Positions 15,743 to 45,763 of a stretch of DNA of 64,000 nucleotides are shown in pieces. The position numbers were made by a program, and so were the translations under genes. Numbering within the stretch: the first letter of the stretch is position 1; the number at the start of each line of letters is the position of its first letter. Source of the stretch: Candidatus Nomurabacteria bacterium (GTDB lineage: Bacteria; Patescibacteriota; Patescibacteriia; HK-STAS-PATE-3); the NCBI GenBank assembly GCA_023898465.1, contig CP060223.1:704001-768000 (forward strand), given 5' to 3'. The notes beneath the pieces are model-generated. The model did no database searches. It saw only the letters and a list, made by a program, of their open reading frames with translations, and was not told the DNA's origin.

Positions 15743-15746
15743 GCTC

Positions 15747-16484: not shown

Positions 16485-16495
16485 AAGCTTATTCG

Positions 16496-17205: not shown

Positions 17206-17358
17206 ATGCAGAAGAAGCTGCACTTCGTTGGCGAGCAACTGCTCGAAGTCGGTCGAGACATTCTCGGCCTTCCCCGTGGCTACGTCGTTGACGGCGAGCC
17301 TGGGGAACGACCGCCGACGCATCTGCGCACGGCACTCAAGGGCCTCTTCACCCGCTAG
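17206..17358 (+). CDS. small hypothetical protein (50 aa)
   Basis: ATG preceded by AGGAGG with 5-nt spacing; high-GC; followed by two hairpins (GCCCAAGC..GCTTGGGC and GCAGCCAAGGC..GCCTTGCTGC); <60 aa so absent from ORF track. Confidence 0.35.
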   Translation: MQKKLHFVGEQLLEVGRDILGLPRGYVVDGEPGERPPTHLRTALKGLFTR

Positions 17359-17508
17359 ACCTCGCACTTTCCTCAAACCGACGGCTGCACTACACGTGTG
17401 GCCGTCTTTCTTTATCAAAACACCGCCCAAGCTCAAGGCTTGGGCTACGTATTGTCTTTCTAGGCCTCGCAGCCAAGGCATTGAGCCTTGCTGCATTGTA
17501 TTCAAAGG

Positions 17509-21047: not shown

Positions 21048-21065
21048 CACAAATCCTCCCAACAA

Positions 21066-21096
21066 GACTCCTCATGCCCTGGGGAGTCTTTCTTTA
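21066..21096 (+). terminator. rho-independent terminator after paralog A
   Basis: GACTCC..GGAGTC stem then TTTCTTTAT. Confidence 0.5.
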
Positions 21097-21212
21097 TCCT
21101 CGACGGACTTCGTATATGTAATAAATTGACACCTGCACTACAAGCGCTATACTGCGACCACACTTTTTGCACCTTCCTACAAACCGCGCCTGAAGAAACC
21201 AAGGAGTACCGG

Positions 21213-21719
21213 ATGAAATCTGAAGGAAGCGCTGGTCTTTGGCGGCAACTTACTCCGGAGCTGCACAAGGCTATCGCGAGTATTCACATCTATGCTGAGG
21301 ATCGTGATAGCAGCGGACCTAAGCCTGAAGCATGCCTTCTTGGACTGTCCATAGATGGCACCGTAGTGTACGCTCATGCCTGGCCACCCCGTGGTCCCAT
21401 CTCGCCGAACATGACTACGCACCTCAATACTCTGTGCGCCGTCCTGGCAAGGCGTCGCAGTAAAGGTTTCGCAATCGAAGCGGTTGACGACCGCATCGAT
21501 GCCTACACCGTGGCCGCTGCAGTGCGCATCGCTGGCACCAGCATGATCATCGGCTGCATCGGCAAGAACTTCTATCCCGAGGGTGGGCTGACTGTCCTCC
21601 TCACCGGAATGAAGAACGCGGGGATCATCGATGCGGAGACAGCAAGTCAAATCGCCACACAAGCGAAGTGCCGCTGGTACTACGAGATCAACGAGCTTCC
21701 AATCCCGCGAAGGATATAG
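21213..21719 (+). CDS. hypothetical protein (168 aa), paralog B
   Basis: Start MKSEGS has AAGGAG 6 nt upstream; distant paralog of 20535..21047. Confidence 0.5.
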   Translation: MKSEGSAGLWRQLTPELHKAIASIHIYAEDRDSSGPKPEACLLGLSIDGTVVYAHAWPPRGPISPNMTTHLNTLCAVLARRRSKGFAIEAVDDRIDAYTVAAAVRIAGTSMIIGCIGKNFYPEGGLTVLLTGMKNAGIIDAETASQIATQAKCRWYYEINELPIPRRI

Positions 21720-24760: not shown

Positions 24761-26041
24761 CTACGAAGTAATCACTGCACCAAGCTGCAGACAATCGGTC
24801 GCACCATGCACGCTGCGATCCTGCCGAGCCGTCACCACAATGTCGGCAACTTCACGACCAGCAAAATGCACTGTCACCCGGGTGAACCACTCAGCACTCT
24901 GGCAAGCACCCGTGTCAGTGAAGTACTCAAAGCGCCGTGCACGATTCTGCACTTCTCGCTGCAACACCGCCCGACCCCGCGCCTTGACCGCCTTTGCCAA
25001 AGCTGCCGAGAAACGCGCATCACTGCTGAAGATGGTTCCTTTCATGCCGCTGGAAATTGACTCCTTCAGCACGAAATTCCCATCAGCACACAAGGCCTGC
25101 CAATACTCCGGTCGCTTGCTTTTGTCGACCAAGTAGGTCGGCGGGATGAAAGCGCGGATGCACTGGAGCGCTTCCGAGGAAATGAAAGCATGCAACATTG
25201 CCTCAAGCTGAGGATCAGCTTCATCATTCCGCAAGATGGCCATGACCGCCTTTGAGCCCAGGAAGGGCTTTGGTGGGAAAAGGAAGTCGAGGCGTCCACA
25301 CTCATACCCTTCACACAAAACCTGATTGAGCGCTTGGTTTTTGTACATGAAGGGAAAATCGAGTAAGGGTGCCAGCGACAAAGCATCGAGCAAGTGCGAT
25401 GTGTCGCCCGTACAGACAGCATCCAACTCGCTCATGAGCTGAAGATCGATACCAAGTCCCTTCAATTCATCCTGCAGGATGAGGAACTCCGGCCGATAGA
25501 AACGCTCTTGGTCTGCATAGAGTAAGATGGCCTGGTTCGTGCCCTTCGCCCGGATTGCTTCAGCCACTTTGACTGCCGCGCCCGGGAAACTCGCGTGGCC
25601 ATTCTGTGAAAGACGTCGTGTACGGGCTGCCAAGGTTGAGTAGCCGAGTCCATGTTTGTTGTGACCATCGATCTCAGCTATCCAGAGTCGCCCACTCGGA
25701 TCTTCCATGAAATCCACCTTGCACACTGCTGGTACTCGACCAGGCTCGCGCAGTTGAATCTCGTGATAGGCCGGCGGCACCCCGGTCTGTGACACACGCT
25801 TCAACATCCCCCAAGTTTTACCATGCACCAACTTGGGTTGTGCCGATGTCGCGACCATGCGCCCGATCCCAGACATACAGTCATACAGAGCCGGCGCCAA
25901 GGCTCGCAGATCTTCGGCCTGTTGAGCAGTCAACTCCAGCACACTGGGCGACAACACGAAACCATGCTGCCGACGAGACCCGTTCGTCCAGATACCAGAA
26001 GCTTCTACTACCTCCAGCACCTCTTGATACGATGGAGACAT
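24761..26041 (-). CDS. hypothetical enzyme, possibly a (circularly permuted) ATP-grasp-like ligase
   Basis: Start MSPSYQEV has AGGAGG upstream; FVLKESISSGMKGTIF resembles the ATP-grasp K-x-GS-G-x-G strand and an E-x-D/N-like motif (WIAEIDGHNKHG) lies N-terminal to it, i.e. reverse of the canonical order; fold assignment is weak. Confidence 0.4.
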   Translation of the reverse strand: MSPSYQEVLEVVEASGIWTNGSRRQHGFVLSPSVLELTAQQAEDLRALAPALYDCMSGIGRMVATSAQPKLVHGKTWGMLKRVSQTGVPPAYHEIQLREPGRVPAVCKVDFMEDPSGRLWIAEIDGHNKHGLGYSTLAARTRRLSQNGHASFPGAAVKVAEAIRAKGTNQAILLYADQERFYRPEFLILQDELKGLGIDLQLMSELDAVCTGDTSHLLDALSLAPLLDFPFMYKNQALNQVLCEGYECGRLDFLFPPKPFLGSKAVMAILRNDEADPQLEAMLHAFISSEALQCIRAFIPPTYLVDKSKRPEYWQALCADGNFVLKESISSGMKGTIFSSDARFSAALAKAVKARGRAVLQREVQNRARRFEYFTDTGACQSAEWFTRVTVHFAGREVADIVVTARQDRSVHGATDCLQLGAVITS

Positions 26042-26081
26042 CTTCTCCTCCTTTGCTTCGTAGCGAATTGTGAATGAACAC

Positions 26082-26516
26082 CTAGGGCAGAATTTCGAGT
26101 ATGTCCTGCAACCTAGAGACAGTGAAGGTGGGTTGTTCTTCGGCACTACGAGGAAGTTCAGAGGCGAACTTTCCTTGTCGCACCCACACTGTCTGCAGAC
26201 CGAGACGATTTCCTAGCGCGATTTCTTTGCGCACCCGATCACCAATCACGAAACTATTTCCTATGGCACACCCTTTCACGATGCGCTGAAGCTCGCGTTG
26301 ACTCTTCCTCCGCGAAACAACTATTTCTGAGAAAAAGGAAGCCAAACCCAGTGAACGAATAAGCTCAGTCCGAGTCGGGATAGCTCGACTGAAAAGCGCT
26401 AAAGTATAGCGACGCTGTAGTCTTGCAAGTACTTCAAGGGCACCAGGCACCAAGGCGCCTTGCGCGGGATCGTACAAAGTACGATTGAAATCAAAAACGA
26501 TAACGTGTTGAGACAT
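26082..26516 (-). CDS. HAD-like hydrolase
   Basis: N-terminal hhhhDxx motif (VIVFDFNRT) and C-terminal GDRxxKE motif; 144 aa. Confidence 0.5.
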   Translation of the reverse strand: MSQHVIVFDFNRTLYDPAQGALVPGALEVLARLQRRYTLALFSRAIPTRTELIRSLGLASFFSEIVVSRRKSQRELQRIVKGCAIGNSFVIGDRVRKEIALGNRLGLQTVWVRQGKFASELPRSAEEQPTFTVSRLQDILEILP

Positions 26517-27778: not shown

Positions 27779-28180
27779 GGGGATGCCCAATAATCGATCG
27801 ATCGTTCACAATCTGTGCAGGCAAGCCGGTCACCCAGGTCTCCCGTAACAGGCCCTGGAAAAAGCAAGTGTCAATTCATTTGCCAGCAAGGTAAAGAACT
27901 CCATTGCTAACGCAATGCAGTCACTCCAACTTGCGCCAGTTGTCGCGTAAAAACCGATAACCATCTATGCTTACGATGTCCTGAGTTGTTCGCATGGGTG
28001 CTACACTTATCAGGATAGGAACCTACCTTGTCTCGGGTTTGTTCCGAACTATTGAGACTAGGAAATAAATGATTTCGTTCGTTTCATACATTTGTTTCTG
28101 AAGCATTAAAGCGAACTAGGCTTGTAGAATGTACACGATTGTACGATGAGACGCGGGCGTGATACCCGCCATCTCCACCA
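27779..28180 (+). ncRNA. ssrA: candidate tmRNA (ssrA)
   Basis: Directly downstream of smpB; 5' GGGGAUG pairs with 3' CAUCUCC-A-CCA giving a G3-U70 wobble; T-arm GCGGG/cgugaua/CCCGC precedes the acceptor 3' strand; candidate tag reading frame GCU AAC GCA AUG CAG UCA CUC CAA CUU GCG CCA GUU GUC GCG UAA (ANAMQSLQLAPVVA) at 27906..27950. Confidence 0.55.
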
Positions 28181-30648: not shown

Positions 30649-30726
30649 TGGCGGGCCCGACCGGATTCGAACCGGCGATCTTCTCCGTGACAGGGAGACG
30701 TGTTAACCGGGCTACACCACGAGCCC
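30649..30726 (-). tRNA. tRNA-Asp (anticodon GTC), CCA encoded
   Basis: Reverse complement GGGCTCGTGGTGTAGCCCGGTTAACACGTCTCCCTGTCACGGAGAAGATCGCCGGTTCGAATCCGGTCGGGCCCGCCA folds as a cloverleaf: 7-bp acceptor, anticodon loop CUGUCAC, T-loop TTCGAAT, discriminator G. Confidence 0.85.
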
Positions 30727-30953
30727 ATCAAATAGACAACAAAATCTAGGAAATACGGATGAGAGTATATCAGTAACTTATTAAGCTGTCTAGGGTTTTA
30801 TTAGCCTTGAAAACCCCACCCTCCCCGGACCGCCGGAACAACTGACTGCGTCTCAGAAACACATGAGGAGAGAGTTCAATGCGCTTCAAGGAATACAGTC
30901 GGCTCCTGGCGGCCTGGGGAGAGGGTAACGACTAGGCGTTACCCTGTGTGTTG

Positions 30954-31139
30954 CTAGAGGTAGTGAGGCACGAAGAGAGGGCGTCGGCCGAAGTCAGGCC
31001 CTTTCCCTACGGGCTTAACAACCCGTCGTGTGAAACTCCTTCGATCTGTGTAGGTCGTCGCGATGCAGAGCTTATAACCCCGCTCCTCTGCGACCTGATC
31101 AGGATCGAAGTCAAAAACATCGACAGTGGACTTTGGCAT
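30954..31139 (-). CDS. small hypothetical protein (61 aa)
   Basis: GAGGAGG 5 nt upstream of ATG; high GC; shares the ..VD..D..E..Y...TTYT.R.. core with 31266..31619. Confidence 0.4.
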   Translation of the reverse strand: MPKSTVDVFDFDPDQVAEERGYKLCIATTYTDRRSFTRRVVKPVGKGPDFGRRPLFVPHYL

Positions 31140-31265
31140 GCAGACCTCCTCGGGTACTCAGCCTCTAGGGTTTGTACAAACTATTCCTCCTCTCACGCCT
31201 CCTCAAAAGAAGAAGTGAGAGGAGGAGAGCAAGTCAGTCGAAACTGCTTGCTCTCCAAAGAAAGA

Positions 31266-31619
31266 TCAACAGTGGTAGGTCTTCGGTCTCTGGCCTCCGA
31301 AAAGGCCGCGGTGCAGACCAGCGTCCGACCTCCTCGTCCTGCGCGGATTCAACCCGTCCTTGGGCGTACATCCGCGAGAAGTGTAGGTCGTCTGTCTCTG
31401 TGCGCCACCTACCCATGGAGCGTAGTTGACGCCGAGGTCGAGCTTCTCCCGAACCGAGAGGCTCGAGAGATCAACAGGACCGATTTGAGGATCGGATTTC
31501 GATTCCGGAGTGAAGTGATCCGTGACCTTCAGCCACGAACCATTCCCTTCTATCCGAACTGACCCTGGACGCGCGTGAATTCTACACATGCCTTCCCCCA
31601 TCTGCTTGCACTGATCCAT
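31266..31619 (-). CDS. hypothetical protein (up to 117 aa; true start uncertain), paralog of 30954..31139
   Basis: C-terminal 60 aa align to the 61-aa neighbour (PVDLSSLSVREKLDLGVNYA..TTYTSRG vs TVDVFDFDPDQVAEERGYKL..TTYTDRR); DNA-level imperfect repeat (CAACCCGTC..GTGTAGGTCGTC). Confidence 0.35.
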   Translation of the reverse strand: MDQCKQMGEGMCRIHARPGSVRIEGNGSWLKVTDHFTPESKSDPQIGPVDLSSLSVREKLDLGVNYAPWVGGAQRQTTYTSRGCTPKDGLNPRRTRRSDAGLHRGLFGGQRPKTYHC

Positions 31620-31724
31620 CAGTGCATGTAAAGGTCCATCTCTACTCCCAACCCCTTCTCACATTCCTGTGAAATGGGATAGGGGTACTTTAGCGGAAGC
31701 GCCTGCTTCTCGCAAGAATCAGCC

Positions 31725-31808
31725 ACCTCCCCTGGACACTCCTCCTCAATGAGGATTGCCCGGGGGAGGCCACGTACACCGATGCATAAGCCTCCGGTGG
31801 ACGTGGCT
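31725..31808 (-). promoter_or_regulatory. structured leader element C, copy 1 (two hairpins, core GUGUCCAGGGGAG)
   Basis: Read on the minus strand: CACGUCCACC..CGGUGUACGUG hairpin followed by CCCCGGG..CCUC..GAGG..GUGUCCAGGGGAG; homologous to 32602..32674. Confidence 0.55.
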
Positions 31809-32577
31809 AAAACAGTGAGTGGTACCAGGACCAAAGCTCAGCGCCCTTGAACAGAGCGAGAACTGCTGCTGGTGCCAGTAAAGAACCAAATGGAAGAGCT
31901 GCCGAGCTGCTCGCCCTGCCGAAGCGGATCAAGCTCAAGCCCAAGATACTACCAGCAGTAGACGCTAGCAGTACGGCAGCCAAGAAAGCAGCTGGACCAA
32001 GAAAGGCTCCAAGCATGAAAGCTAGCTTCACATCACCAAGCCCCATTCCTACCTGCCCACTTGCCTTCTTATAGAACCAGCCGATCAGGTAGAAACTTAC
32101 TCCTCCAGCCGCAGAGCCAGTGAGAGCTGGTACCAGGCCAATAGTCCAAGGTGAGAGCATCAATCCAAGTACAACTCCTCCCAAGCTGATTTCGTCGGGA
32201 ATGATCCGCTCGCGCCAATCCGTGAAGAAGACAACGAGCAGACCAAAGAAAAACAGCCAGGCGGAAAACCTCGGTATCATGTCAGGAATGGCAACGTAGA
32301 CCAGCAGGGCCAAGCCACCACCCAGCAGTTCAACCACAGGGTAGTGAAGCGAGATTGCTGACCGACAGTAGGCGCAACGCCCACGCAAAGCAATCCAGCT
32401 CAAGACTGGAACGAGATGCCAGGATCGAAGACGTCGACCACAGCATGGCGCGTATGACCTTGGCGTGCATACGCTCTCCCTAGGAGGGAGGCGATGAATG
32501 CACACATTAGCGAAACTGCCGAGCAAAGTGCCAACCATGAACACGAAGCTCGCAATCAGATACACACTTCCGTACAT
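31807..32577 (-). CDS. pilD: type IV prepilin peptidase (A24 family; PilD/ComC-like)
   Basis: N-terminal CxxC..CxxC zinc region (CTPRSYAPCCG..CAYCRSAI), polytopic A24 core; GGAGG 4 nt upstream of ATG. Confidence 0.8.
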   Translation of the reverse strand: MYGSVYLIASFVFMVGTLLGSFANVCIHRLPPRESVCTPRSYAPCCGRRLRSWHLVPVLSWIALRGRCAYCRSAISLHYPVVELLGGGLALLVYVAIPDMIPRFSAWLFFFGLLVVFFTDWRERIIPDEISLGGVVLGLMLSPWTIGLVPALTGSAAGGVSFYLIGWFYKKASGQVGMGLGDVKLAFMLGAFLGPAAFLAAVLLASTAGSILGLSLIRFGRASSSAALPFGSLLAPAAVLALFKGAELWSWYHSLF

Positions 32578-32601
32578 GTCTCCTCCCTGAGTTTGTATTC
32601 T

Positions 32602-32674
32602 CCCCTGGACACCCCTCTTGAGAGGTACCCGGGGAAGATCACGTCCACCGAAGCTTCATGCAAGGGTGGACGTG
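32602..32674 (-). promoter_or_regulatory. structured leader element C, copy 2, ending 13 nt before the pilD SD
   Basis: Minus-strand reading CACGUCCACC cuugcaugaagcuucg GGUGGACGUG (10-bp perfect stem) then CCCCGGGUACCUCUCAAGAGGGGUGUCCAGGGGAGA; second-hairpin inner stem differs compensatorily from copy 1. Confidence 0.55.
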
Positions 32675-32686
32675 ATCGCTGAGCGC

Positions 32687-33097
32687 TTACTCGCGCTGCG
32701 GGGTCAGGACAAGGACGGACTCGCCATCCTTTCCATTGACCGTGATGCGATAGGAGGAGAAGAACTCGGCCGGATCGTAGTAGACCGCACCAGACTCCTT
32801 CCCAGCCTTGTCGTAGGACCCGACGTCGTAGACCGCCGTACCTCCGAAGGGATTCCGGATACTACGCCTGGCGTTCGCCACCCCAGCGATGGAATCCGGA
32901 TAGACTCCTCCGTTCGCTGTAGCCCAGTCATCGACCATGTCCTGCACTTCGTAGGCATTGGACTTGGCCGTCGACAGACGTGCCCTGTCCTGCAGCGCCA
33001 GGTAATTCGGGACGGCGATGAGCGCCAGGATCCCGATGATGACCACCACGATCATGAGCTCGATGAGGGTGAATCCCTCCTGATTCTTCCGAAGCAT
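32687..33097 (-). CDS. type IV pilin / pseudopilin (class III signal peptide)
   Basis: MLRKNQEG|FTLIELMIVVVIIGILALIA: Gly-1, Phe+1, Glu+5 prepilin signature; GAGGAGGAA SD upstream; ORF track extends to a TTG at 33163 but the ATG at about 33097 fits the leader-peptide length. Confidence 0.75.
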   Translation of the reverse strand: MLRKNQEGFTLIELMIVVVIIGILALIAVPNYLALQDRARLSTAKSNAYEVQDMVDDWATANGGVYPDSIAGVANARRSIRNPFGGTAVYDVGSYDKAGKESGAVYYDPAEFFSSYRITVNGKDGESVLVLTPQRE

Positions 33098-33149
33098 CAC
33101 TTCCTCCTCTCTGGCTTCACCGGCAGCCAGTTGCCGTTGTAGAGAATAT

Positions 33150-33235
33150 TTTTCTCTCCGCAATCCTTATTCCCTTCCTCCCCTTTCAAAAGGGGAGGCT
33201 AGGTGGGGTTAAGAACTCTGGAGAGAGGAGGAGGA
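33150..33235 (-). promoter_or_regulatory. structured leader element, family A/B, copy B1 (variant with CCUCCCC/GGGGAGG inner hairpin)
   Basis: Minus-strand reading CCUCCUCCUCUCUCCAGAG..[CCUCCCC uuuugaaa GGGGAGG]..UUGCGGAGAG about 50 nt upstream of the pilin SD; the 5' pyrimidine tract is complementary to the SD GAGAGGAGG. Confidence 0.55.
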
Positions 33236-33435
33236 CAACCAAGGCAGAAGTGACACAAGGTCACAACCGCGAAGATCGACCCTCCTCCATGTGCTAGTGA
33301 CGCCCGCATTCGCGCCAAAGTTGGCGGGTGAGCAGACGGCGGTGATGCGTCAATCCGCATCGAGCTCGCAGCGCCCGACGACGCTGCCACTCGTGCAAAA
33401 AGAGTTCCACATGATGGAAAAATGATATGACACCC

Positions 33436-33612
33436 TCCATCACTTGAACTCCTGATTACAGAAGCAATACGCGCTCCGCGCCATCCATGTTACCCCGCTC
33501 AAGAAGAGCAAGAGACAAAAGAAGGCGGTGAGTGGCCCGATCGGAGTGGTCAGCGCTCCGAGCATGCCAAGCGATAGCAGTTCAGCAGCCACTGCCTGAA
33601 AAAGATATCGCA
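33436..33612 (-). CDS. small membrane protein (58 aa), hypothetical
   Basis: ATG with AGGAGG 6 nt upstream; MRYLFQAVAAELLSLGMLGALTTPIGPLTAFFCLLLFLSGV...; overlaps the 3' end of 33582..34211 in another frame; <60 aa so not in ORF track. Confidence 0.3.
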
Positions 33613-34211
33613 TCCTTGCCTCCTAGGTTTCTGGTCCGATATGCACCGAACCAGACTACAACGTGACAGACCAGGCTGACGCCTGGATATACCAGAGCCG
33701 CGAAACCATCCGGCCAGGCAACAACACCTTGCAACGCATACGCCAGCACGCCCAAACTCCACGGCCACTGGCTCATGCGCTGAGTACGAGAGAAACTCAT
33801 CTTCGCTATAGGTACAAAGGAAGGGATCACCACCACCTGAGCGATGATGTTCTCTGCCTTTGGATTATGAGCAAGGGTTGCGTAACCCAGAGCTATCACA
33901 ACGCCAATTCCCATAGACATGTCCCACGCGTCGATCCTCGCAATCTGGCTGACTTGCTTCCACCCGAGCTTCACAATGTACGCAAGGGTGAAGAGCATGA
34001 TCAGGCTAATGCAGGCGACCTGCACATAGGTAAAGATGCGCGCGTAAAGTGACGTGAATTCCCGATAGGTAAGAAAATTCAACATCACCCACACAAACCA
34101 CATCCCGATGGTAACGGGATGCGGCACTTCGCCCTTGAAGATGGCTCGGAGATACGCGAAGTATGCTCCAGCCAAAGCCAAGGAAGCAAGAACCATACAT
34201 ACCGCTCCCAT
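33582..34211 (-). CDS. polytopic membrane protein, hypothetical (209 aa)
   Basis: Five to six predicted TM helices; no recognisable family. Confidence 0.45.
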   Translation of the reverse strand: MGAVCMVLASLALAGAYFAYLRAIFKGEVPHPVTIGMWFVWVMLNFLTYREFTSLYARIFTYVQVACISLIMLFTLAYIVKLGWKQVSQIARIDAWDMSMGIGVVIALGYATLAHNPKAENIIAQVVVIPSFVPIAKMSFSRTQRMSQWPWSLGVLAYALQGVVAWPDGFAALVYPGVSLVCHVVVWFGAYRTRNLGGKDAISFSGSGC

Positions 34212-34399
34212 GAATACCTCCAGCTAAACGTGTTTTCTTCCTCCCTTGAATAACTAAACTCAATTTAGTAACTCAAGGGAGGCTCCGTCCATGTAGGTGT
34301 GACATGGACGGAGCGGTACGGCCTTGAACCTTTCAAAAAAGGCGGCCGCCATCACTGCGCTGCGTATGTTTGGTGATGCAACGCTTTGTGACAAAGCTG

Positions 34400-34497
34400 T
34401 GGCAGATGCAGGATTCGAACCCAACGACTCGCGAAAGAGTCATCTGGTGAATCGGTTGTTAACCGACGGGACCACTCCCTGGTCACCAGCACCTGCC
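34400..34497 (-). ncRNA. aberrant tRNA-like element (98 nt)
   Basis: Reverse complement begins GGCAGGTG and ends GGGTTCGAATCCTGCATCTGCCA: perfect T-loop consensus, 7-8-bp acceptor helix, candidate anticodon arm UCGG-UUAACAA-CCGA, 26-nt variable arm with GACUC/GAGUC hairpin; T-stem and D-arm are poor; TATACT box 7 nt upstream of the 5' end. Confidence 0.3.
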
Positions 34498-34507
34498 AAT
34501 AAAGTAT

Positions 34508-34555
34508 ACACTCTCCGCAGTCCCGTACCTCACATGGTACGAGGCTCTGGAGAGA
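34508..34555 (-). promoter_or_regulatory. structured element, family A/B, copy A1 (variant with CGUACC/GGUACG inner hairpin), immediately upstream of the tRNA-like element
   Basis: CUCUCCAGAGCC[UCGUACC augugag GUACGGG]ACUGCGGAGAG on the minus strand. Confidence 0.5.
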
Positions 34556-34592
34556 TCCGGAGCAAGTAACGTGTACTTACTCCGGAGAGAAA
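34556..34592 (-). terminator. hairpin after the 139-aa gene (CTCCGGA..TCCGGAG 7-bp stem)
   Basis: Perfect 7-bp inverted repeat with 19-nt loop directly after the stop of 34595..35014. Confidence 0.35.
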
Positions 34593-34594
34593 GG

Positions 34595-35014
34595 TCACAT
34601 GACGCGACCGAGCCTCGATCGAAGTCGTCCGAGCTGCGGCACAGTGAGAAGATCGTTCCGATGCTGAGAGCGTCGTCTCTCTTCTTCTGCACGACACCTC
34701 TCGGTCTCGCGCTTCTGTCGCTTGTCCGCTTCAGTCTTCCGCCACGCTTCCAGCGCGTGACGGAGCGTGTGGAGGACGTCGTACGCATCCTCCGGACGAT
34801 GCGATGCGCAATGTGGCTCGACCACTCCGTGCGTCTGACCTCGATGCGGGCAATACGCCTGCTTCGGACTGCAGGCTTGGCCGCACTGACGACAGACCAG
34901 ACTAGCCTCTTCCGGGTTCGCCAAGATCTTTTCGACCTCGGCTTCAGTGAAAGACCTCGGGACCATGTAGGACCCGGACTCGCTGAGAACCATCATCGAG
35001 ATTGAGAATGACAT
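34595..35014 (-). CDS. hypothetical protein with Cys/His cluster (139 aa)
   Basis: GAGGAGG 6 nt upstream of ATG; CRQCGQACSPKQAYCPHRGQTHGVVEPHCASH plus Arg/Glu-rich C-terminus. Confidence 0.5.
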   Translation of the reverse strand: MSFSISMMVLSESGSYMVPRSFTEAEVEKILANPEEASLVCRQCGQACSPKQAYCPHRGQTHGVVEPHCASHRPEDAYDVLHTLRHALEAWRKTEADKRQKRETERCRAEEERRRSQHRNDLLTVPQLGRLRSRLGRVM

Positions 35015-35064
35015 CGTAGCCTCCTCACTGACTTCCGGCGTCAGCAGCCGCTTAGAGAAACCAT

Positions 35065-35112
35065 TTCCTCTCCGCAGTCTCGTACCTCACATGGTACGAG
35101 GCTCTGGAGAGG
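35065..35112 (-). promoter_or_regulatory. structured leader element, family A/B, copy A2, about 50 nt upstream of the SD of 34595..35014
   Basis: Near-identical to A1 (one substitution in the inner stem); shares the extended flank GAGAAACCATTTCCTCTCCGCAGTC with copy B2. Confidence 0.55.
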
Positions 35113-35157
35113 CCCCGAACTGTGGAAGCTCAGGGCGAAAATCGATTGGACTTGAGA

Positions 35158-35595
35158 CTAGGTTAGTCTCTCAACCGATTTCACGTACACCCAACCCTTC
35201 AATCGGCCTCGAACGTAAGATACGGTGACCTCACTTCCTTCAGCAACAGCATCGAAGAGCTGACGTTCTACAGAAACAGTATCTCGTCCTTCAGCAACAT
35301 CGACTGTCAGCTCCCACTTGTCGGAGTGGTGTACGCTTTGAGGCAGAGTCGTTTTTGTTGCCGCATTATAGACATACATAACGGTGACGTGTGCGGCCGT
35401 GAACGTCTTGTTAACAACGCGCCCTCGGCCCTCTTGAAGCGGTCGGAACCACGAGTCAATCGCCGTGAAGATGCCCCAACCCAGCGCAACGAGCACGATG
35501 AGCACGATGAGAAGTATGACTGCAGCTAGGAGTGACCCATAGGGCCAATCGTTCAAGAGCTCCATAAATCCCCTCATCATATCAGCCGAAAACAT
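35158..35595 (-). CDS. membrane-anchored hypothetical protein (145 aa)
   Basis: GGGAGGG 5 nt upstream of ATG; one TM (LLAAVILLIVLIVLVALGWGIF) then soluble beta-rich domain. Confidence 0.5.
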   Translation of the reverse strand: MFSADMMRGFMELLNDWPYGSLLAAVILLIVLIVLVALGWGIFTAIDSWFRPLQEGRGRVVNKTFTAAHVTVMYVYNAATKTTLPQSVHHSDKWELTVDVAEGRDTVSVERQLFDAVAEGSEVTVSYVRGRLKGWVYVKSVERLT

Positions 35596-35624
35596 ATCGC
35601 CCTCCCTTTGCTAGAGAAACCATT

Positions 35625-35705
35625 TCCTCTCCGCAGTCCTCATTCCCTTCCTCCCCTTTCAAAGGGGAGGCTAGGTGGGGTTAAGAACTCTGGAGAGAGG
35701 AGGAG
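35625..35705 (-). promoter_or_regulatory. structured leader element, family A/B, copy B2
   Basis: About 95% identical to B1 across the CCUCCCC/GGGGAGG hairpin and flanks; about 25 nt upstream of the SD of 35158..35595. Confidence 0.55.
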
Positions 35706-35767
35706 AAGGGCAGTCTTCTTCTCCAGTGTACTTGTCACCCGCTCTACTGCCTGCGGGAAAGAACTAG

Positions 35768-36217
35768 TCAGATGCACTCAGGGTGTGCACCGACATAACG
35801 CCCTTCCACTCCTATTGTAGAGACGTAATCTCCACAAATCTCCCCTCCACACATGACACAACCATGGGTAGCACATGGTTCCTTTTCTCGGGGTGTCCAG
35901 TCACAGGACCCCCCTCTTTCCTTGCCGCATGAGTAGCACGCGGCTACCCACTCGACAATTCCCTTGTGATCTTCAGGGGATTGGATGGGTACCTGGAATG
36001 ATATCCCCGTCAGATCCACACCACAGAATTTGCACTGTTTGTCATATACCGTCCCACGCCGAACTTCCAGTTCGGCTAGTCCGCGTTGATCCATCCCTGC
36101 CATTTCCCCTTTCCTTATGGTGGGGATATGATCGTTACAATATGCAACGTCATAAAGCAGGCCAGATGTGTAGTGAGTCGCGACCTGGTTACACGTATGA
36201 CAATGGATGGTCTTCAT
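35768..36217 (-). CDS. Cys-rich hypothetical protein with four CxxC pairs (tandem zinc ribbons), 149 aa
   Basis: HCHTCN, CKFCG, CYSCG, CVMCGG motifs. Confidence 0.45.
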   Translation of the reverse strand: MKTIHCHTCNQVATHYTSGLLYDVAYCNDHIPTIRKGEMAGMDQRGLAELEVRRGTVYDKQCKFCGVDLTGISFQVPIQSPEDHKGIVEWVAACYSCGKERGGSCDWTPREKEPCATHGCVMCGGEICGDYVSTIGVEGRYVGAHPECI

Positions 36218-37097
36218 TTCATCCTCCAGCGCCTAGAGCGCTTTTACCTGCCCCGCGGAGCAAGCGTATTTCAACTTCTTGGTGAAAGGAATCGTGCACG
36301 CGTACGTGCAGTATGTAGAATCCCCTTCCAGCGGGGCACAGCGCGCAAGGCACTATGGAGTCGCCACCATCGCTTGATGATGACCCTCCTCAAATCGTCC
36401 TCCGACTCAAACTTATTCGACAAGAATCAAGCGAGCTACAAAATTAACTTCATGAGAACGACTTAAGGAGAAATAGATTGTCAACGTTCACGAATCCTCA
36501 GCAACAATCTGGAGGCGAGTAACGAAATGTATCTTTGGACCGAGGCCCGATACACCCTACAGTTTCTCATGAAAGTAGTCAGTTTGCACCAACCGCGATC
36601 ATGTCCACTGGATGTCACTCCCCCTCCATATTGCTGCTGGAGATGAAAGAGGCAGACTTGAGGTATCGGTTTTCCACAATGCTGAGCAAAAGCCCAACAC
36701 CGTAGGATACCTCAAGTCCAACTCCTTCCTTTCCCGGAAGATCGGAGCGAGGTGGTCGCGGCCCTTCGCTCAAAATTTGCGTGACCGGCCAAATGCTCCC
36801 TCCGATGTTTCGGGAAAGTACTGCTAATAAAAATAGGCAGTAGACTGGGGATTTCGAGGAGACGACGAAACACGCAGTATACTGCCTTTTTACTCACCGT
36901 TTTTACGTAGGCAAAACCGGTGTCTCTCTCCTCGGATATTTATTTGGAATGAACCCCCTAAATCAGCGTAACAGCGGATAATACCATACCTAGCTATTCT
37001 TGTCAAGAGTTAAAGGTGCTAATATTAGCCAATTTAGCTAAAATTAGCCCATCCTTACATTATTCCCAGGTGGTAGAAGGAAGGGCTGGGGGTGGCG

Positions 37098-37937
37098 TCA
37101 GCACCGCCATAGCTCCTCACCTCGCACCTCAATGCACACATCCCCTTCTTCAATAGTTGAGAGTATCTGGGCACCGCGCTGCTCCACTCGCTCAAGCGTT
37201 TCAGGGCTAGGATGCCCAAATTGATTATCTAGGCCCGCGGAAACTATAACGATGCTGGGCTCTACCGCATCCAACCAAGCATCACTGGAGGAGGTTTTTG
37301 AGCCATGATGACCCAACTTCAATACATCAGCATGGAGTGGTAAACCAGACTCCAGCATTTCCTTTTCCTCATCAAAGTCGGCGTCGCCAGTCAATATGAA
37401 TGATTTCGCGCCAACATCTAAGCGAGTAACTACTGAATAGCGATTTTGATCGTCTGGCTCCTTTCCTCGCCAATCACCTTTAGGTGCGAGGACGGTCAGC
37501 TCCGCACCAGGCAAACTATAGCGTTGACCAGGCTGCGCATAGAGTATCGTTACCCCCTGATCAACTAAGAGCTGGAGAAACTCCTGATAGGCGGGCAAGT
37601 AATGTTCCACTCCGGTGAGTAAAACGCTTTGCACATGATAACGATGTAGCACCTCAACAAAGCCTGTCACATGATCAGCGTCAGGATGTGTCAGCACAAG
37701 CAGTTCAATAGTGCGGTCAAAATATGGTAAACGCTCACCTAGCCGCTCAACAACGGTCATGTCAGCTCCTGCATCAGTCAACACGTCAAAATGTTGTAGC
37801 GCTTGAATAAGTATCGCGTCTCCCTGTCCAATATCTAGAGTAGTCACTCGCACGAAATGCACCTGACGATATGACCAGACAACATATCCTGCCACGAAAA
37901 TACACAGCACAAATAAAATGAGTCGTATTCGCTTCAT
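37098..37937 (-). CDS. comEC: ComEC C-terminal metallo-beta-lactamase domain protein
   Basis: VTTLDIGQGDAILI...HPDADHVTG MBL motifs characteristic of the ComEC nuclease domain; overlaps upstream ORF by 4 nt. Confidence 0.75.
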   Translation of the reverse strand: MKRIRLILFVLCIFVAGYVVWSYRQVHFVRVTTLDIGQGDAILIQALQHFDVLTDAGADMTVVERLGERLPYFDRTIELLVLTHPDADHVTGFVEVLHRYHVQSVLLTGVEHYLPAYQEFLQLLVDQGVTILYAQPGQRYSLPGAELTVLAPKGDWRGKEPDDQNRYSVVTRLDVGAKSFILTGDADFDEEKEMLESGLPLHADVLKLGHHGSKTSSSDAWLDAVEPSIVIVSAGLDNQFGHPSPETLERVEQRGAQILSTIEEGDVCIEVRGEELWRC

Positions 37938-39439
37938 GCCTGAGAAATTTTTAATGCTGCTCTTTGCCTCCTATCCAAATACCATACCCAGGCAAAAAGT
38001 CCGAAATAGAGAAGCAGCCACCAATATTGTCCTGTGGCAAAATGCAACAATGACCAATCCGGCAAAGCAAAAAATTCCACTACCATGATTACACCACGCA
38101 GTATGAGCCAGGTTGCCGCTCCAAATAGTATGCCAAGTGATAAAGAGAGCACGCTAAGTAAAAGCGCCGCCGTCCCGGCTGCCATGGCAAAAGGAATCAA
38201 GGGAAGGATGAGCACGTTCACAAATAAACTAACGAGAGACACTCGACCAAACACGCAGAGAATAAGTGGCAAGGTAAATAAGGAAGCGGCAATAGTGGCA
38301 GAGATGGTGCCCCGTATTTCAAAGCGCTCTGGCAAGAAATGCACCCAACGATCAACATGACCAGAAAGCAACATAAGTCCCAGGGTAGACCCAAAAGAGA
38401 GCTGAAAGCCCGCATCATCTAATAAGATGCGCGGGTTTACTAAAACCATACTTACCCCACTCAGCACGAGGGCATTTATCCCGCGACTCGGTCGACCTAC
38501 ATGTCCGGCAAAAGCGGCAATGCACCCCATAATACCTGCCCGCACAATCGACGCTTGGCCGCCCACAAAAATTACAAACAGCGAAATTGCTAAGAGGACA
38601 AACCAAAAGGCATGCCGGCGACCAATCGTTTTTATCGCCATCGACATGATGAGGTTTACAACAATGGTGATATTAAATCCTGACAGCGCAATGAGATGTG
38701 TCGTACCTGTCCGACCAAAGGCCTCTGTTAACCACTCAGGCAATCCGCGGCGCGCACCAACCAAGAGACCAGCCTCAAATGATGCTTCAGGCTCGGGTAG
38801 GATACGGGAGAGCTGCGCAGTCACCCACTCCCTCCCATCAATGAGCGCACCACTAAAACTCCAATGAGAGGATTGTACAAGATCGAAGTGGCGAGCACTG
38901 CAGGTTGTCGCAATTCCGGATAAGGCTAGATAACGATCATAGGCAAAATCCTCAATCGGCTCGGGATGACGCACAAAGCAGCTGAAGCTCACCTCATCAT
39001 TTAATCGAAAACGCGGATACAATAGCGCTCGCACTAAAATCTTTGCATCATTATTCTGTTCTGCACTTGTAATTTGATTATTAGAATTTGTTTTTTGTTT
39101 ATTGGTATTTGGAATTTGGGATTTGCTATTTGGGATTTCTATGGTGTACTTAATATGATCGCGGCGAATATCAGGCGCTGCTACAATCTGACCTTGCAGA
39201 CTAGTGTTCCCTTCAGGCAATTGAGCGAGCTCTGACACTACGGTTGCTCGCACTACACCAAGCGACAATCCAAAAAGACAAAGGAGCAACAGTGGTGCGC
39301 GCCGCCCTATAACGAAGATAATAAATACCCCGCAACAAAAAAGAAGCGGGTAAAGCAAAGGCAGAGAAATCCATCGGTAGAGACCTATACCGATGAGGAA
39401 AGAAATAAGTGTAGAGAGAAAAAGCTGGGAACGCGTCAT
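37934..39439 (-). CDS. comEC: ComEC/Rec2 family competence membrane channel domain protein
   Basis: DUF4131-like N-terminal region and Competence domain (LSGFNITIVVNLIM...GQASIVRAGIMG); contains N/K/Q-rich low-complexity insert. Confidence 0.75.
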   Translation of the reverse strand: MTRSQLFLSTLISFLIGIGLYRWISLPLLYPLLFCCGVFIIFVIGRRAPLLLLCLFGLSLGVVRATVVSELAQLPEGNTSLQGQIVAAPDIRRDHIKYTIEIPNSKSQIPNTNKQKTNSNNQITSAEQNNDAKILVRALLYPRFRLNDEVSFSCFVRHPEPIEDFAYDRYLALSGIATTCSARHFDLVQSSHWSFSGALIDGREWVTAQLSRILPEPEASFEAGLLVGARRGLPEWLTEAFGRTGTTHLIALSGFNITIVVNLIMSMAIKTIGRRHAFWFVLLAISLFVIFVGGQASIVRAGIMGCIAAFAGHVGRPSRGINALVLSGVSMVLVNPRILLDDAGFQLSFGSTLGLMLLSGHVDRWVHFLPERFEIRGTISATIAASLFTLPLILCVFGRVSLVSLFVNVLILPLIPFAMAAGTAALLLSVLSLSLGILFGAATWLILRGVIMVVEFFALPDWSLLHFATGQYWWLLLYFGLFAWVWYLDRRQRAALKISQA

Positions 39440-39503: not shown

Positions 39504-39809
39504 TCAATGAGAGGTCTCCACGGCCTGAGAAGCAAGCACGTTCAAGCGCAAGTGACGCACCACCGCGCCGTAGGTAAAGCGCAGCCGAGTTCCCGAAGGA
39601 ACAAGAATCGAATCTCCTCGATTGATACGTGACCCATCGGCCACGAGGACGATCGGACCGGCCAGAGTCAGATTCCTCACTCGAATCTGATCACCCTCTA
39701 CCGAGAAGCTCACCTCCCTCGGAAGCTTCCCTCGGAGGATTTTGCCCTCCTCATCATCCTTACTCCTGAAGGAAACGATCTCGAGACCCTCGATTTCAGT
39801 AGCGCCCAT
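39504..39809 (-). CDS. hypothetical protein (about 101 aa)
   Basis: High-GC; start MGATEIEG has GGAGGG 4 nt upstream. Confidence 0.4.
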   Translation of the reverse strand: MGATEIEGLEIVSFRSKDDEEGKILRGKLPREVSFSVEGDQIRVRNLTLAGPIVLVADGSRINRGDSILVPSGTRLRFTYGAVVRHLRLNVLASQAVETSH

Positions 39810-39936
39810 GTAGCCCTCCACAGGTTGATAGAAAAGAGCAGCTACTCAGTATGTACCATGCGCAAAAGACTCCGTCAAATAAAGAAAGCCCCTCTACATC
39901 CTGCAAAGGGGCTGTACTTGCGGTGAGTGAACGAGG

Positions 39937-40179
39937 CTAGCGGACGACGCGGAAGAGAGTCTCGTCGACAGTGAAGTCCGTACCGTACGGTACCACCACG
40001 TGGCGCGTCGGCCAGACGGTCTCACGACCAACCCGGACGCCACCCACAGCGCTAGTGTTGTGCAACACCACCTGCTCATACCCACGGGAGCGGAGACTCA
40101 CCCCAATATCGTAATCGCCGACCTGGGGATCACGGGGGACCGGATGTGTCCTCATTCCATCAACACGCACAATCTGCAT
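39937..40179 (-). CDS. hypothetical protein (80 aa)
   Basis: High-GC; GGGAGG 7 nt upstream of ATG. Confidence 0.4.
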   Translation of the reverse strand: MQIVRVDGMRTHPVPRDPQVGDYDIGVSLRSRGYEQVVLHNTSAVGGVRVGRETVWPTRHVVVPYGTDFTVDETLFRVVR

Positions 40180-40282: not shown

Positions 40283-41365
40283 TTATATTACCGCACCCTC
40301 GCCTTTTAAATACGCTTCGATAAAGCCATCCAAATCACCATCGAGTACGGCTTGCGGATTATCTCCCTCGTGCTTAGTGCGATGATCTTTCACCATCTTA
40401 TAGGGATGCAACACATAAGAGCGAATTTGATTTCCCCATTCAGCTGAGTGAAATTCACCCCGAAGTTCTTTGCGCTTTTCCTCTTGTTCTTCCAGCCGCC
40501 TCATGTGCAATTTCTGCTTGAGAATCTTCATGGCTGTCTCTAGGTTCTGCTTTTGCGAACGCTCATTCTGACACTGCACAGTAATCTTGGTGGGTAAATG
40601 GACAATCCGTATAGCTGAATAGGTAGTGTTCACGCTCTGTCCACCATGACCTGAGGCCGTTGATGCCTCAATCTTCAAATCCTTTTCATCAATAACAATA
40701 TCAGGCAAGTCGCCAAAGTCCGGGATCACCTCAACAAGCGCAAATGAAGTATGACGCATCTTCTCGGCATCAAAAGGAGAAATGCGCACGAGGCGATGCA
40801 CACCTGCTTCGGCTTTGAGATAACCATAAGCATAGCGACCAAGCACTTCCATAGTAACACTCTTTATGCCCGCCTCACTACCTCGAGACTCATCAATCAC
40901 TTTCGCTGTCCAGCCCTTGCGTTCAAAATAACGCAGGTACATGCGCTTCAACATCTCAGCCCAATCCTGCGCATCAGTACCACCCGCTCCGGCATGAATA
41001 GCAAAGACGGCATCATTGGCATCGTACTCGCCACTAAGCATCATAGTAAATTCAAGCTGAGTAAAATCTTTCTCCAGCTTTTCGATTTGCGACTGCAGCT
41101 CTTCAGAGTCGCCAGTCTCTTGAGCTAGCTCATCTAGGGCTTGCGATTCTTCTTGCATTCGTTGCCAAAGCTCAACCTCTTTCTTAAGTTCGTCAAATTC
41201 ACGACTTGTCTTTGCCGCTGCCATATTGTCAGACCAGAAATCTGGCTGACTCATCTTATCTTCTAATTCCTTCAATAACTGCTGCTTTTGCGGCAGGTCA
41301 AAGAAACCCCCGTGAGGAGGCAATCTTTTGTGCGAGTTCGTGGATGCGTCCTTGAAGATCAGTCA
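40283..41365 (-). CDS. prfB: peptide chain release factor 2, with programmed +1 ribosomal frameshift site
   Basis: Short frame-0 ORF MTDLQGRIHELAQKIASSRGFL ends at the classic CGG GGG UUU CUU UGA C site (internal SD-like GGGGG, CUU-UGA-C); the +1 frame continues DLPQKQQ..., containing SPF and GGQ motifs. Confidence 0.85.
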
Positions 41366-43094: not shown

Positions 43095-43409
43095 CTAGCG
43101 AACTTGCCGGTTTTTTCTATTTCTCCGGCGACGCGAACGTCGAGAGCCCAGTGAAGTCAGTACCACCTCTTGGCAAGGGAATTCCTTAACAAATGGTGGC
43201 CAGTTCACTGGGAAGAACAAGGCTTGGTACCCATGACGGTCAATCAGCTCTTGCCGAAACCTCTCCTCGCAGACATACCACTTCCGTCTCAGCAAAATCC
43301 GACGATTTTCGTGATGTAGCTGTCCGAGTCTCTCTGCCTGCTTCCTGTCGTCAGCCACGATCGGCTGACTCATTCCGCACACTGGACATTGAGCCAGAAA
43401 GCGTTGCAT
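43095..43409 (-). CDS. hypothetical zinc-ribbon protein with Arg-rich C-terminus (104 aa)
   Basis: GGAGG 7 nt upstream of ATG; CPVCG...CEE; tail RRSRRRRNRKNRQVR. Confidence 0.45.
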   Translation of the reverse strand: MQRFLAQCPVCGMSQPIVADDRKQAERLGQLHHENRRILLRRKWYVCEERFRQELIDRHGYQALFFPVNWPPFVKEFPCQEVVLTSLGSRRSRRRRNRKNRQVR

Positions 43410-45331: not shown

Positions 45332-45763
45332 TTACTTTAGCAGGCGCTTCTGCAATGCGTCAAATGCGGTAAGAGCTCGCTGTACTGTACTCATAAGTGG
45401 TAAATTCCCCGCCTCCGCAATAGTCACCCATCGATACTCGTCATGCTCGTCGCTTAAATGGACTTGCTGCTCTTCAGTGGTGCACCAGATATACATTCCA
45501 ACAATATGTCGTTTGAGGCCCTGGATTGTTGGCTCCCAAGCATCAATGGAAATTGGAATATCAACGCGAATATGCAAACCCGTTTCTTCCGCCACTTCCC
45601 GTTTTATGCCATCAAATGGTGATTCACCTAAGCCTAAACGGCCTCCAGGAACATCCCATTTACCAACATTTGTCGCTTCATCATATGCCCGCTCGCGAAG
45701 TAAAAGAATTTTATCTTTATGCGTAATGATCGCTTTTACCGCTACAAATTGTTCTTGGGGCAT
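45332..45763 (-). CDS. NUDIX hydrolase
   Basis: Nudix box GGRLGLGESPFDGIKREVAEETGL. Confidence 0.8.
   Translation of the reverse strand: MPQEQFVAVKAIITHKDKILLLRERAYDEATNVGKWDVPGGRLGLGESPFDGIKREVAEETGLHIRVDIPISIDAWEPTIQGLKRHIVGMYIWCTTEEQQVHLSDEHDEYRWVTIAEAGNLPLMSTVQRALTAFDALQKRLLK

Follow-up and report, generated by a model that had tools for sequence, protein, structure and literature searches.

The window analysed here, a stretch of 64,000 nucleotides (nt) from the metagenome-assembled genome of an uncultivated Candidatus Nomurabacteria bacterium (contig CP060223.1, positions 704,001 to 768,000), carries nearly all of its genes on the minus strand, and at 30730-36250 it contains a block of small genes that stands out from its surroundings. 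On balance, this block is probably a strain-variable, one-directional 'pilin island' in a genome of the candidate phyla radiation (CPR), made up of small cassettes that are bounded by stem-loops. Each cassette would have the form hpB - SD - gene - hpA, in which hpA and hpB are two kinds of hairpin and SD is a Shine-Dalgarno sequence. The cargo consists of a major-type pilin, the prepilin peptidase PilD, a 209-amino-acid (aa) protein (p209) with two tiny coupled partners, a phage-related, membrane-anchored protein (p145), two Cys/His-rich proteins (p149 and p139), and an allo-tRNA-like gene. The island is set apart by its offset in GC content, by the identities of its genes, and by hpB, which within the window is confined to it; in addition, hpB shows compensatory changes in a distant contig (L003), the unit that carries pilD differs between strains, and the C-terminal part of the pilin has been replaced.

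The GC content is 54.5% for 30730-36250 versus 48.7% for the remainder of the window, and it is 0.550 in the core of the block (31000-35700). Equal-size windows elsewhere have a mean of 0.490 (standard deviation [sd] 0.012, maximum 0.524), which places the block about 4.6 sd higher. An earlier, sequence-only reading of this DNA had described the block as GC-richer than its flanks, and the windowed calculation (0.545 against 0.487) bears this out. At third codon positions, GC (GC3) is 0.50-0.78 in the island genes versus about 0.38-0.53 in housekeeping genes. The surroundings were identified by Pfam scans, which covered about 45 of the 60-odd long open reading frames (ORFs) of the window; long ORFs outside these scans include 54-569, 11782-12189, 16496-17137, 43095-43409, 45332-45763, 55256-60850 and 61758-62099, as well as comEC (37098-39439) and RF2 (40283-41323), which are named from the source annotation and their sequence. 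Around the block, the scans find housekeeping genes for aminoacyl-tRNA synthetases, ClpB, TGT, RecO, IF3, L20 and HtrA, together with ribonucleotide reductase, NrdR, FtsZ/FtsA and YbeY. The low-coordinate border of the island is a tRNA-Asp (GTC) gene (30649-30726, minus strand; called by ARAGORN, 64 bits with the Rfam tRNA model), and the island lies on its 5' side.

On the minus strand, a stable hairpin that lacks a U-tract (hpA) comes after every gene of the island, and before the next gene stands another hairpin (hpB), with pyrimidines predominating in its 5' arm and purines in its 3' arm. The base of hpB is a 6-bp pyrimidine/purine stem, above which come a small internal loop and an upper stem that varies. 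Repeated leader elements had already been reported by the sequence-only reading, and direct and inverted repeats, together with a covariance model of hpB (R1, run with all filters off), confirm them. In the direction of the array, and all on the minus strand, the copies begin with the long-type L1 (35627-35697), the leader of p145, which scores 23.2 bits with R1 and was outside the training of the model. Then follow S1 (35068-35111; the leader of p139, 42.8 bits), S2 (34511-34554; 13 nt upstream of the tRNA-like gene, 41 bits), T (34241-34281; the leader of p209, inverted repeat I4, 40.8 bits), and the second long-type copy, L2 (33154-33225; the leader of the pilin, 21.4 bits, likewise outside the training). 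After the pilin lies module H3A (32600-32674; hpA 32640-32674, hpB 32600-32637, 37.8 bits), and after pilD lies module H3B (31727-31805; hpA 31771-31805, hpB 31727-31768, direct repeat D3, inverted repeat I1, 48.8 bits). A last stem-loop module (31185-31256, inverted repeat I6) precedes the gene p61; it contains an hpA at 31224-31256 (GGAGAGCAAGC..GCUUGCUCUCC) and a weaker relative of hpB at 31185-31226, a 12-bp pyrimidine/purine hairpin that is marginal for R1 (14 bits).

hpB is conserved as a structure. For 16 copies, with total lengths of 38-72 nt, RNAalifold gives the consensus ((((((..(((((((((...)))))))))..)))))), and double compensatory changes are present in 12 of the 15 consensus pairs. 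In a truncated alignment, 86.6% of the cells pair versus 72.8% after shuffling, and none of 500 shuffles was as high; there, a mismatch is conserved immediately above the 6-bp base. The sequences of the base differ among copies (CUCUCC..GGAGAG, CUCCCY..RGGGAG, CCCACC..GGUGGG), and GTT/AAC cores are absent. The hpB copies of one genome are related to one another: the identity of L1 to L2, and likewise of S1 to S2, is 92-94%, and the interiors and 3' flanks are shared mosaically among copies. Within 31.1-35.7 kb, R1 finds the five window copies used in its training, two independent copies, and the marginal one, and it also recovers two copies outside the training, at L003:9313 and the long copy of L004 (a diverged strain, described below). 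Over the remaining 59 kb of the window, R1 gave no convincing match, and in control loci amounting to 50 kb it gave none at all. A search of metagenome contigs for the hpB pattern gave at least 120 chance matches and no relative, and a comparison of the hairpins with Rfam gave no family, just chance miRNA-like matches.

The hairpins appear to act as RNA. hpB scores higher with R1 on the sense strand than on the antisense strand by 14-25 bits, and the substitutions between L1 and L2 preserve pairing via G-U pairs; because of this bias and the G-U-preserved pairing, formation of the structure in the sense RNA is favoured. Furthermore, the island spacers are unusually structured (-0.40 to -0.49 kcal/mol of minimum free energy [MFE] per nt, z down to -10.8) and are devoid of U-tracts, and canonical U-tract terminators are present elsewhere in the window. 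The idea that hpA is a canonical intrinsic terminator was rejected, given that it has no U-tract. Likewise, hpB is not an element that simply sequesters the SD or acts on translation only, because the untranslated tRNA-like gene also has an hpB upstream. On the RNA, hpA and hpB might serve as attenuators, processing sites or end protectors, so that the level of expression would be set for each cassette separately. At the level of DNA, their repetition would offer homology by which cassettes could be gained, lost or swapped through homologous recombination.

Evidence that cassettes do vary comes from public comparison loci. L004 is a diverged strain (Logan SRR17818317) whose DNA is 82-94% identical to the window, and L003 is a distant contig of 103 kb from JGI. 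In L004, the pilin protein is 55% identical to that of the window (dN/dS 0.43) versus 88% for its neighbour p209; given this disparity, the C-terminal part of the pilin must have been replaced between the strains while its flanks were conserved. In addition, L004 lacks pilD: a single module follows the pilin, and the sequence that the window has after pilD comes next. A three-way alignment shows that L004 corresponds to the post-pilin sequence of the window through hpA (…AAGCTTCGGTGGACGTG) and beyond hpA switches to the post-pilD hpB (GCCTCCCCCGGGCAATCC…). Since the alignment switches at this point, exactly one hpB-SD-pilD-hpA unit differs, and the joint lies between hpA and hpB. Downstream of pilD, positions 31555-31805 of the window, which are mostly non-coding, are 94% identical to L004 1577-1827, and the neighbouring genes are about 82% identical (dS 0.5-1.1); such identity points to either a recent recombination tract or a constrained non-coding element.

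In L003, the layout of hpA plus hpB recurs 55-140 nt upstream of about 12 small genes, with an hpA that reads GGAGGACG..CGUCCUCC followed by an hpB that reads CCCACCCGAG..CUCAGGUGGG. These modules precede about 12 of some 30 co-oriented small genes without Pfam matches, including a pilin beside a homologue of p209; the pilin-p209 pair is situated between DUF4012 and MurJ/LepA genes, and comEC is not adjacent. The region of L003 concerned (2500-17500, in a 59%-GC contig) has almost no Pfam matches, and its small genes include a semiSWEET-like (MtN3/PQ-loop) gene, a second paralogue of p209 (31%), and secreted proteins with signal peptides. LepA is also found near the homologue of p145 in an unrelated contig (L014). 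All other public contigs of the region (L001 and L005-L013) are 100% identical to the window and represent pieces of the same strain, derived from at least six samples. These short-read contigs break off within the hairpin repeats (at 35676, 33204/33218 and 34553, for instance); assemblies are thus fragmented by the repeats, and such arrays may be under-recovered in metagenome-assembled genomes.

Among the genes of the island, the pilin and its companions are the best defined. The type IV pilin (32687-33097, minus strand; 136 aa) matches Pfam N_methyl (1.4e-10) and TIGR02532 (1.6e-8), has no cysteines, and begins with the leader MLRKNQEG/FTLIELM (the slash marks the cleavage site), which contains the class III signal G/FTLIE. 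As in other type IV pilins, a short basic leader with Gly as its last residue precedes a hydrophobic N-terminal helix, and positions +1 and +5 are Phe and Glu (MLRKNQEG/FTLIELMIVVVIIGILALIAV). Relatives in the PDB align solely through the N-terminal helix, and the N-terminus matches PHROG pilin families. The prepilin peptidase PilD (31807-32577, minus strand; NCBI USN53245, prepilin peptidase) matches A24_N_bact (3.9e-29) and Peptidase_A24 (1e-16), and its translation contains 'FTDWRERIIPDE' and 'GLGDVKL'. These features befit an A24 peptidase, in which a Cys-rich A24_N domain at the N-terminus is joined to a polytopic Peptidase_A24 domain whose two catalytic Asp residues include that of GxGDxK. 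The domain matches in Pfam and NCBIfam thus agree with the earlier assignment of a class-III-signal pilin and an A24 prepilin peptidase.

Upstream of the pilin, p209 (33582-34211; dN/dS 0.11 versus L004), p57 (33440-33613; 57 aa, dN/dS 0.29) and orf49 (33294-33440; 49 aa, dN/dS 0.12, missed by the sequence-only reading) lie on the minus strand in tight succession: p209 and p57 overlap by 32 nt, and p57 and orf49 overlap at TGATG. From this arrangement, the three genes are predicted to form one translationally coupled unit, and the dN/dS values against L004 indicate purifying selection on all three and on the pilin. No match to p209 was found in Pfam or NCBIfam, and a word-indexed search of 5.8 billion proteins returned only three: a 204-aa protein that NCBI predicts from this very gene (100% identical), its counterpart in L004, and a homologue in L003 with 51% identity. 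The AlphaFold2 (AF2) model of p209 has seven helices (pLDDT 73, pTM 0.69), and its best Foldseek matches in the PDB are the KDEL receptor, SWEET and cystinosin (TM-score 0.57-0.59, E 0.016-0.3). As modelled, p209 is a pilin-linked membrane protein with seven transmembrane (TM) helices and a PQ-loop/SWEET fold. The link to the pilin is kept in both L003 (p209 51%, pilin 43% identical) and L004 (88% and 55%). An alignment of p209 found no relatives in metagenome and viral contigs, and scans of genome contigs with ComEC and with the p209 alignment found no relatives of the island in 185,579 GTDB species representatives.

The other small genes, all on the minus strand, are more enigmatic. p149 (35768-36217), the first gene of the array, encodes a Cys-rich orphan with four CxxC pairs; phmmer against 1.84 billion representatives returned the protein itself and one marginal match (E = 8e-4), and viral contigs contained no relatives. 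p145 (35158-35595) combines a TM helix at its N-terminus with a subsequent beta domain, which contains the motif YNAATKT. One homologue (42% identity) comes from a bacterium with 31% GC, where its neighbours are Phage_30_3 and DUF4145 genes, and homologues of 30-35% occur in two IMG/VR viral contigs; the AF2 model (mean pLDDT 56) is too poor for a fold search. p139 (34595-35014; NCBI USN53247, hypothetical) is Zn-ribbon-like and Arg-rich, with a weak match to Zn_ribbon_15 only; phage relatives were not found by tblastn, nor were relatives in viral contigs. USN53246 is another protein that NCBI names hypothetical. p61 (30954-31139; 61 aa), the last cassette, has the SD GAGGAGG 5 nt from its ATG and a codon-position GC pattern typical of coding DNA, and it is an orphan that forms a singleton protein cluster. 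A further ORF of 117 aa (p117, 31266-31619) has no SD and no family match. For p61, p139 and p117, no convincing match was obtained in any family library searched, and PADLOC yielded no defence family. SDs of the GGAGG type are found 5-8 nt before the ATG of the 61-, 57-, 209-, 139-, 145- and 149-aa genes, the pilin and PilD. The sequence-only reading had listed seven small genes with such SDs, and those of 61, 209, 139, 145 and 149 aa stand; its 58-aa gene has 57 aa, and its 117-aa ORF exists but is doubtful as a gene because its SD is absent and its GC at second codon positions (0.53) is atypical. Its view of the cargo as novel is upheld by the orphan status of p149, the absence of families for p139 and p61, and the great sparseness of homologues. 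A 71-aa ORF (31619-31834) was rejected as non-coding, since it contains a stop codon in L004 and has a dN/dS of 1.9.

One cassette position is occupied by a tRNA-like gene, which the sequence-only reading did not include. This 99-nt gene (34399-34497, minus strand), 13 nt after hpB copy S2, is called tRNA-Val(AAC) by ARAGORN, which folds it into a cloverleaf with discriminator A and a long variable arm, in which the acceptor stem has 8 bp and the T stem 4 bp. The 12-bp acceptor branch is thus split 8/4. The MFE fold (z = -4.2) has a variable-arm hairpin of 5-8 bp and a D stem of 5-7 bp with a pentaloop, versus 4 bp for the D stem in ARAGORN, and similarity to the Rfam tRNA-Sec model is weak (22 bits, E = 0.69). 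Allo-tRNAs were discovered as false positives of tRNA-Sec models, have diverse anticodons, and are often located near toxin-antitoxin or transposon genes (Mukai et al. 2017, PMC5389517). Like these RNAs, which are of the 8/4 or 9/3 type (PMC5389517), the gene has an 8+4 bp branch, weak similarity to tRNA-Sec, a non-serine anticodon, and an accessory or mobile gene setting; its variable arm and its D stem, which is extended in the MFE fold, may be further points of likeness. By its sequence, it is a candidate 8/4 allo-tRNA that largely fits the description; the discriminator base departs from it, being A here and G73 or U73 (serine identity) in most allo-tRNAs. Furthermore, the reported hosts are Clostridia, Proteobacteria and Acidobacteria (PMC5389517), whereas this candidate is in a CPR bacterium.

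The origin of the island may be sought in its composition. L003 is presumed to be a CPR contig, and its GC content is 0.55-0.63 throughout, including the DUF4012, MurJ and LepA flanks. Because L003 is GC-rich even in its housekeeping flanks, the array is compositionally native there and foreign-looking in the window, a contrast that agrees with transfer from GC-richer lineages. Horizontal exchange, with GC-richer CPR lineages and phages as the probable donors, would then have built up the island. Any acquisition must be old, since the GC-rich block is common to the window and L004, two strains at dS 0.5-1.0. The earlier statement that acquisition by mobility was unproven still holds, for such acquisition continues to be inferred from composition and patchy homology. 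Transcription of the array may start from a promoter at 37006, from unrecognised promoters, or from both. The island would serve variation of the pilus or the cell surface, for host attachment or evasion of phages, and DNA uptake would be at most one use of the pilus.

Several points weigh against the pilin-island reading. Some hpB copies were located by their pairing, which inflates the pairing statistics given above, and an RNA-level role of hpA and hpB is an inference. There are only two comparators, a strain-level contig of 1.8 kb (L004) and a distant contig (L003), and the junction that lacks pilD comes from a single short-read contig and could reflect a repeat-driven collapse of the assembly. 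A scan for sigma-70 promoters found sites at 37006 and 30792 only, with none inside the array. Finally, a GC offset that persists at dS 0.5-1.0 is compatible, too, with a native locus that has constraints of its own.

The last point leads to the alternative that this is a vertically inherited pilus locus, whose high GC content and hairpin spacers result from local selection on RNA structure or amino-acid composition. The GC-rich state shared by two strains is consistent with this idea, as are the other small GC-rich hypothetical genes scattered in the window and the repeated regulatory hairpins at 6.6-8.4 kb. However, the shift in GC3 (up to 0.78) falls at synonymous sites; homologues of the cargo are extremely sparse and reside in unrelated hosts (31% and 59% GC) and viral contigs, with none in the GTDB species representatives; and pilD is present in one strain and absent from the other. 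We think a native locus unlikely.

It is somewhat less probable still that the block is an integrative island or a prophage remnant, which would have entered site-specifically at tRNA-Asp and later lost its integrase. Such an element would explain the neighbouring tRNA gene and the GC offset of about 4.6 sd, and phage connections do exist: p145 has relatives in viral contigs and, in another genome, beside a Phage_30_3 gene, and the N-terminus of the pilin resembles PHROG pilins. Nevertheless, neither an integrase nor a recombinase domain was found in the roughly 45 long ORFs scanned, in line with the earlier failure to see an integrase. The 3' end of tRNA-Asp (22 nt) occurs once in the window, with no second copy even when up to three mismatches are allowed, and the block is on the 5' side of the tRNA gene rather than in or after its 3' end. 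Structural phage genes are missing, and searches of phage and plasmid collections, by DNA and by protein, matched only the N-terminus of the pilin.

A similarly low probability is assigned to a bolder form of the cassette idea, in which the stem-loop pairs mark an undescribed CPR cassette system. The pairs would be boundaries that are defined by structure and maintained through covariation in distant lineages, and a dedicated enzyme, acting in recombination or RNA processing, would mobilise the cassettes and express them separately. If true, it would constitute an integron-like or PeSL-like surface-variation platform in episymbiotic bacteria, one that carries pilus and surface genes, phage-derived genes and even tRNA-like genes.

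The sequence-only reading had suggested that the block may be a competence module (ComGC/ComC/ComEC logic) with co-regulated accessory genes. On such a view, the pilin and PilD would form a ComG-like pseudopilus that takes up DNA together with the adjacent ComEC channel, and the small genes would be accessory competence factors that share regulation through their leaders. CPR bacteria use com genes for transformation, their Com proteins are believed to cooperate with type IV pili, and Saccharibacteria need comEC to be transformed (PMC10633639). In the window, the prepilin-type subunit, the A24 peptidase and comEC all lie within 7 kb on one strand. comEC (37098-39439, minus strand) consists of two ORFs with a 4-nt overlap, a 501-aa Competence-domain protein and a 279-aa Lactamase_B protein (NCBI USN53249 and USN53250), and other public assemblies of the strain are annotated with this split as well. 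However, no PilB/ComGA ATPase, PilC/ComGB platform protein, PilM/N/O alignment protein or PilT was found in the scanned ORFs, the small proteins match no known com family, and the pilin reaches just 36.3 bits with the ComGC equivalog (NF040999 pilin_ComGC) against a cut-off of 75, by its N-terminus only. Nor does the earlier tie to comEC hold, for comEC has the baseline GC of the genome (0.47-0.49) and is not part of the hairpin array, from which it is separated by an ORF-poor gap of 880 nt that has its own near-consensus promoter, and the array of L003 does not adjoin comEC. Moreover, type IV pili of CPR bacteria are also needed for host association, independently of comEC, and their essentiality in Saccharibacteria is unrelated to comEC (PMC10633639); consequently, the presence of a pilin does not imply competence. 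The competence reading thus fails its defining tests within the window, is not supported by the single synteny comparison, and seems to us very improbable. The proximity of pilin, PilD and comEC is no evidence of a competence operon.

Least credible is an integron-like system, in which hpB would be a folded single-strand site and the array a cluster of attC sites without an integrase, its recombinase being encoded elsewhere. attC sites are imperfect hairpins in which a conserved paired base is followed by an unpaired spacer, a second stem and a terminal part that varies, and their core sequences are R'' RYYYAAC and R' GTTRRRY. The resemblance is considerable, in that co-oriented small genes, one of them a non-coding (tRNA-like) cassette, are split by imperfect hairpins of this anatomy (38-72 nt), a whole cassette is gained or lost exactly at a module boundary, and the same architecture recurs with a different base sequence in a distant genome; yet no IntI or other recombinase was found in the scanned ORFs, the bases CUCUCC/GGAGAG and CCCACC/GGUGGG do not fit the attC core, the crossover lies between hpA and hpB rather than within the hairpin arms, the mosaic sharing among copies fits ordinary homologous recombination, and the G-U-dependent bias for the sense strand points to RNA.

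The closest known systems for the pilin island are the pilin-accessory cassettes of Pseudomonas aeruginosa and the PeSL (promoter-early stem-loop) motifs of T4-like phages. In P. aeruginosa, the cassettes lie between pilA and tRNA-Thr, in a tRNA-adjacent hypervariable region whose alleles are thought to be horizontally exchanged, and a stem-loop after the pilin sets the dosage of the accessory genes (PMC11841053, PMC5331068). As with pilA and tfpO/W/X/Y/Z, the island combines strain-specific accessory genes with a major pilin, a pilin whose C-terminal part is replaced between strains, and a stem-loop after the pilin stop (hpA 32640-32674); the p209 group is upstream, pilD is downstream, and tRNA-Asp is at the end of the array. 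The linkage of accessory gene and pilin across genomes also holds, as p209 stands beside a pilin in L003 and L004. In contrast to P. aeruginosa, the stem-loops here have no U-tracts and are found on both sides of every gene, PilD forms a cassette of its own, phage-related, orphan and tRNA-like genes are among the cargo, and the host is a CPR bacterium. The likeness is one of layout and linkage, and the p209 model is PQ-loop/SWEET-like. PeSL motifs (terminator/promoter) mediate modular shuffling of ORFans in T4-like phages and are points of homologous exchange in their hyperplastic regions (PMC2839356, PMC4122927). The island shares with them composite regulatory motifs repeated between small ORFan genes, as well as motif-bounded cassette indels between close relatives. 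Unlike PeSLs, which have a recognisable early promoter and are found in phage genomes, the motifs of the island have no recognisable promoter, are chromosomal, and consist of two hairpins, the second of which is structurally conserved. The likeness to integron arrays, namely co-oriented small genes with imperfect hairpins between them and whole-cassette gain and loss, and that to the ComG/ComC/ComEC apparatus end at the differences given above.

Upstream of the array, within the gap that precedes it, a sigma-70 promoter (37006-36978, minus strand) matches the consensus at 11 of 12 positions (TTGACA-17-TATTAT with TG) and is followed by about 380 nt of structured RNA (the whole feature spans 36600-37006; MFE -162.5 kcal/mol, z = -7.66). 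This region contains no convincing ORF and has no Rfam match even at E <= 10. The RNA may be a leader of the array or a separate structured non-coding RNA.

Elsewhere in the window, a tmRNA gene (27779-28180, plus strand; Rfam 74 bits) lies 2.5 kb from tRNA-Asp. The RF2 ORF (40283-41323, minus strand) has a TTG start, and the N-terminal segment normally present is missing, perhaps as a result of the programmed frameshift of prfB. A second GC-rich patch (6589-8960, minus strand) contains three hypothetical genes of 213, 173 and 183 aa without Pfam matches, the last with 60.5% GC. Two near-identical U-tract terminator hairpins of about 60 nt occur near 6900 and 8340, each followed by UUAUUGACUUC, and this pair resembles a further repeated regulatory module. 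Additional hypothetical genes that are GC-rich (0.55-0.61) and have no Pfam matches, at 20535-21719 (plus strand), 24761-26146 (minus strand) and 39504-40179 (minus strand), are scattered amid the housekeeping genes. Two ORFs of the plus strand, which start at 20535 and 21126, are weakly paralogous to each other (25% identity), and the two small genes at 39504-40179 flank the other side of comEC. Paralogy between the island genes and the other GC-rich ORFans of the window was considered and rejected after comparison.

CPR bacteria (Patescibacteria) have very small genomes and need type IV pili for attachment to their hosts. To our knowledge, the mechanisms by which they vary their surfaces and acquire genes have remained largely unknown. 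The island adds leads at the level of RNA, namely a conserved family of hairpins, an allo-tRNA-like gene in a phylum without reported ones, and an unclassified structured RNA of 380 nt. Furthermore, the locus offers a concrete architecture for surface variation in the CPR, one in which even the prepilin peptidase, normally a 'core' gene, is packaged as a cassette.

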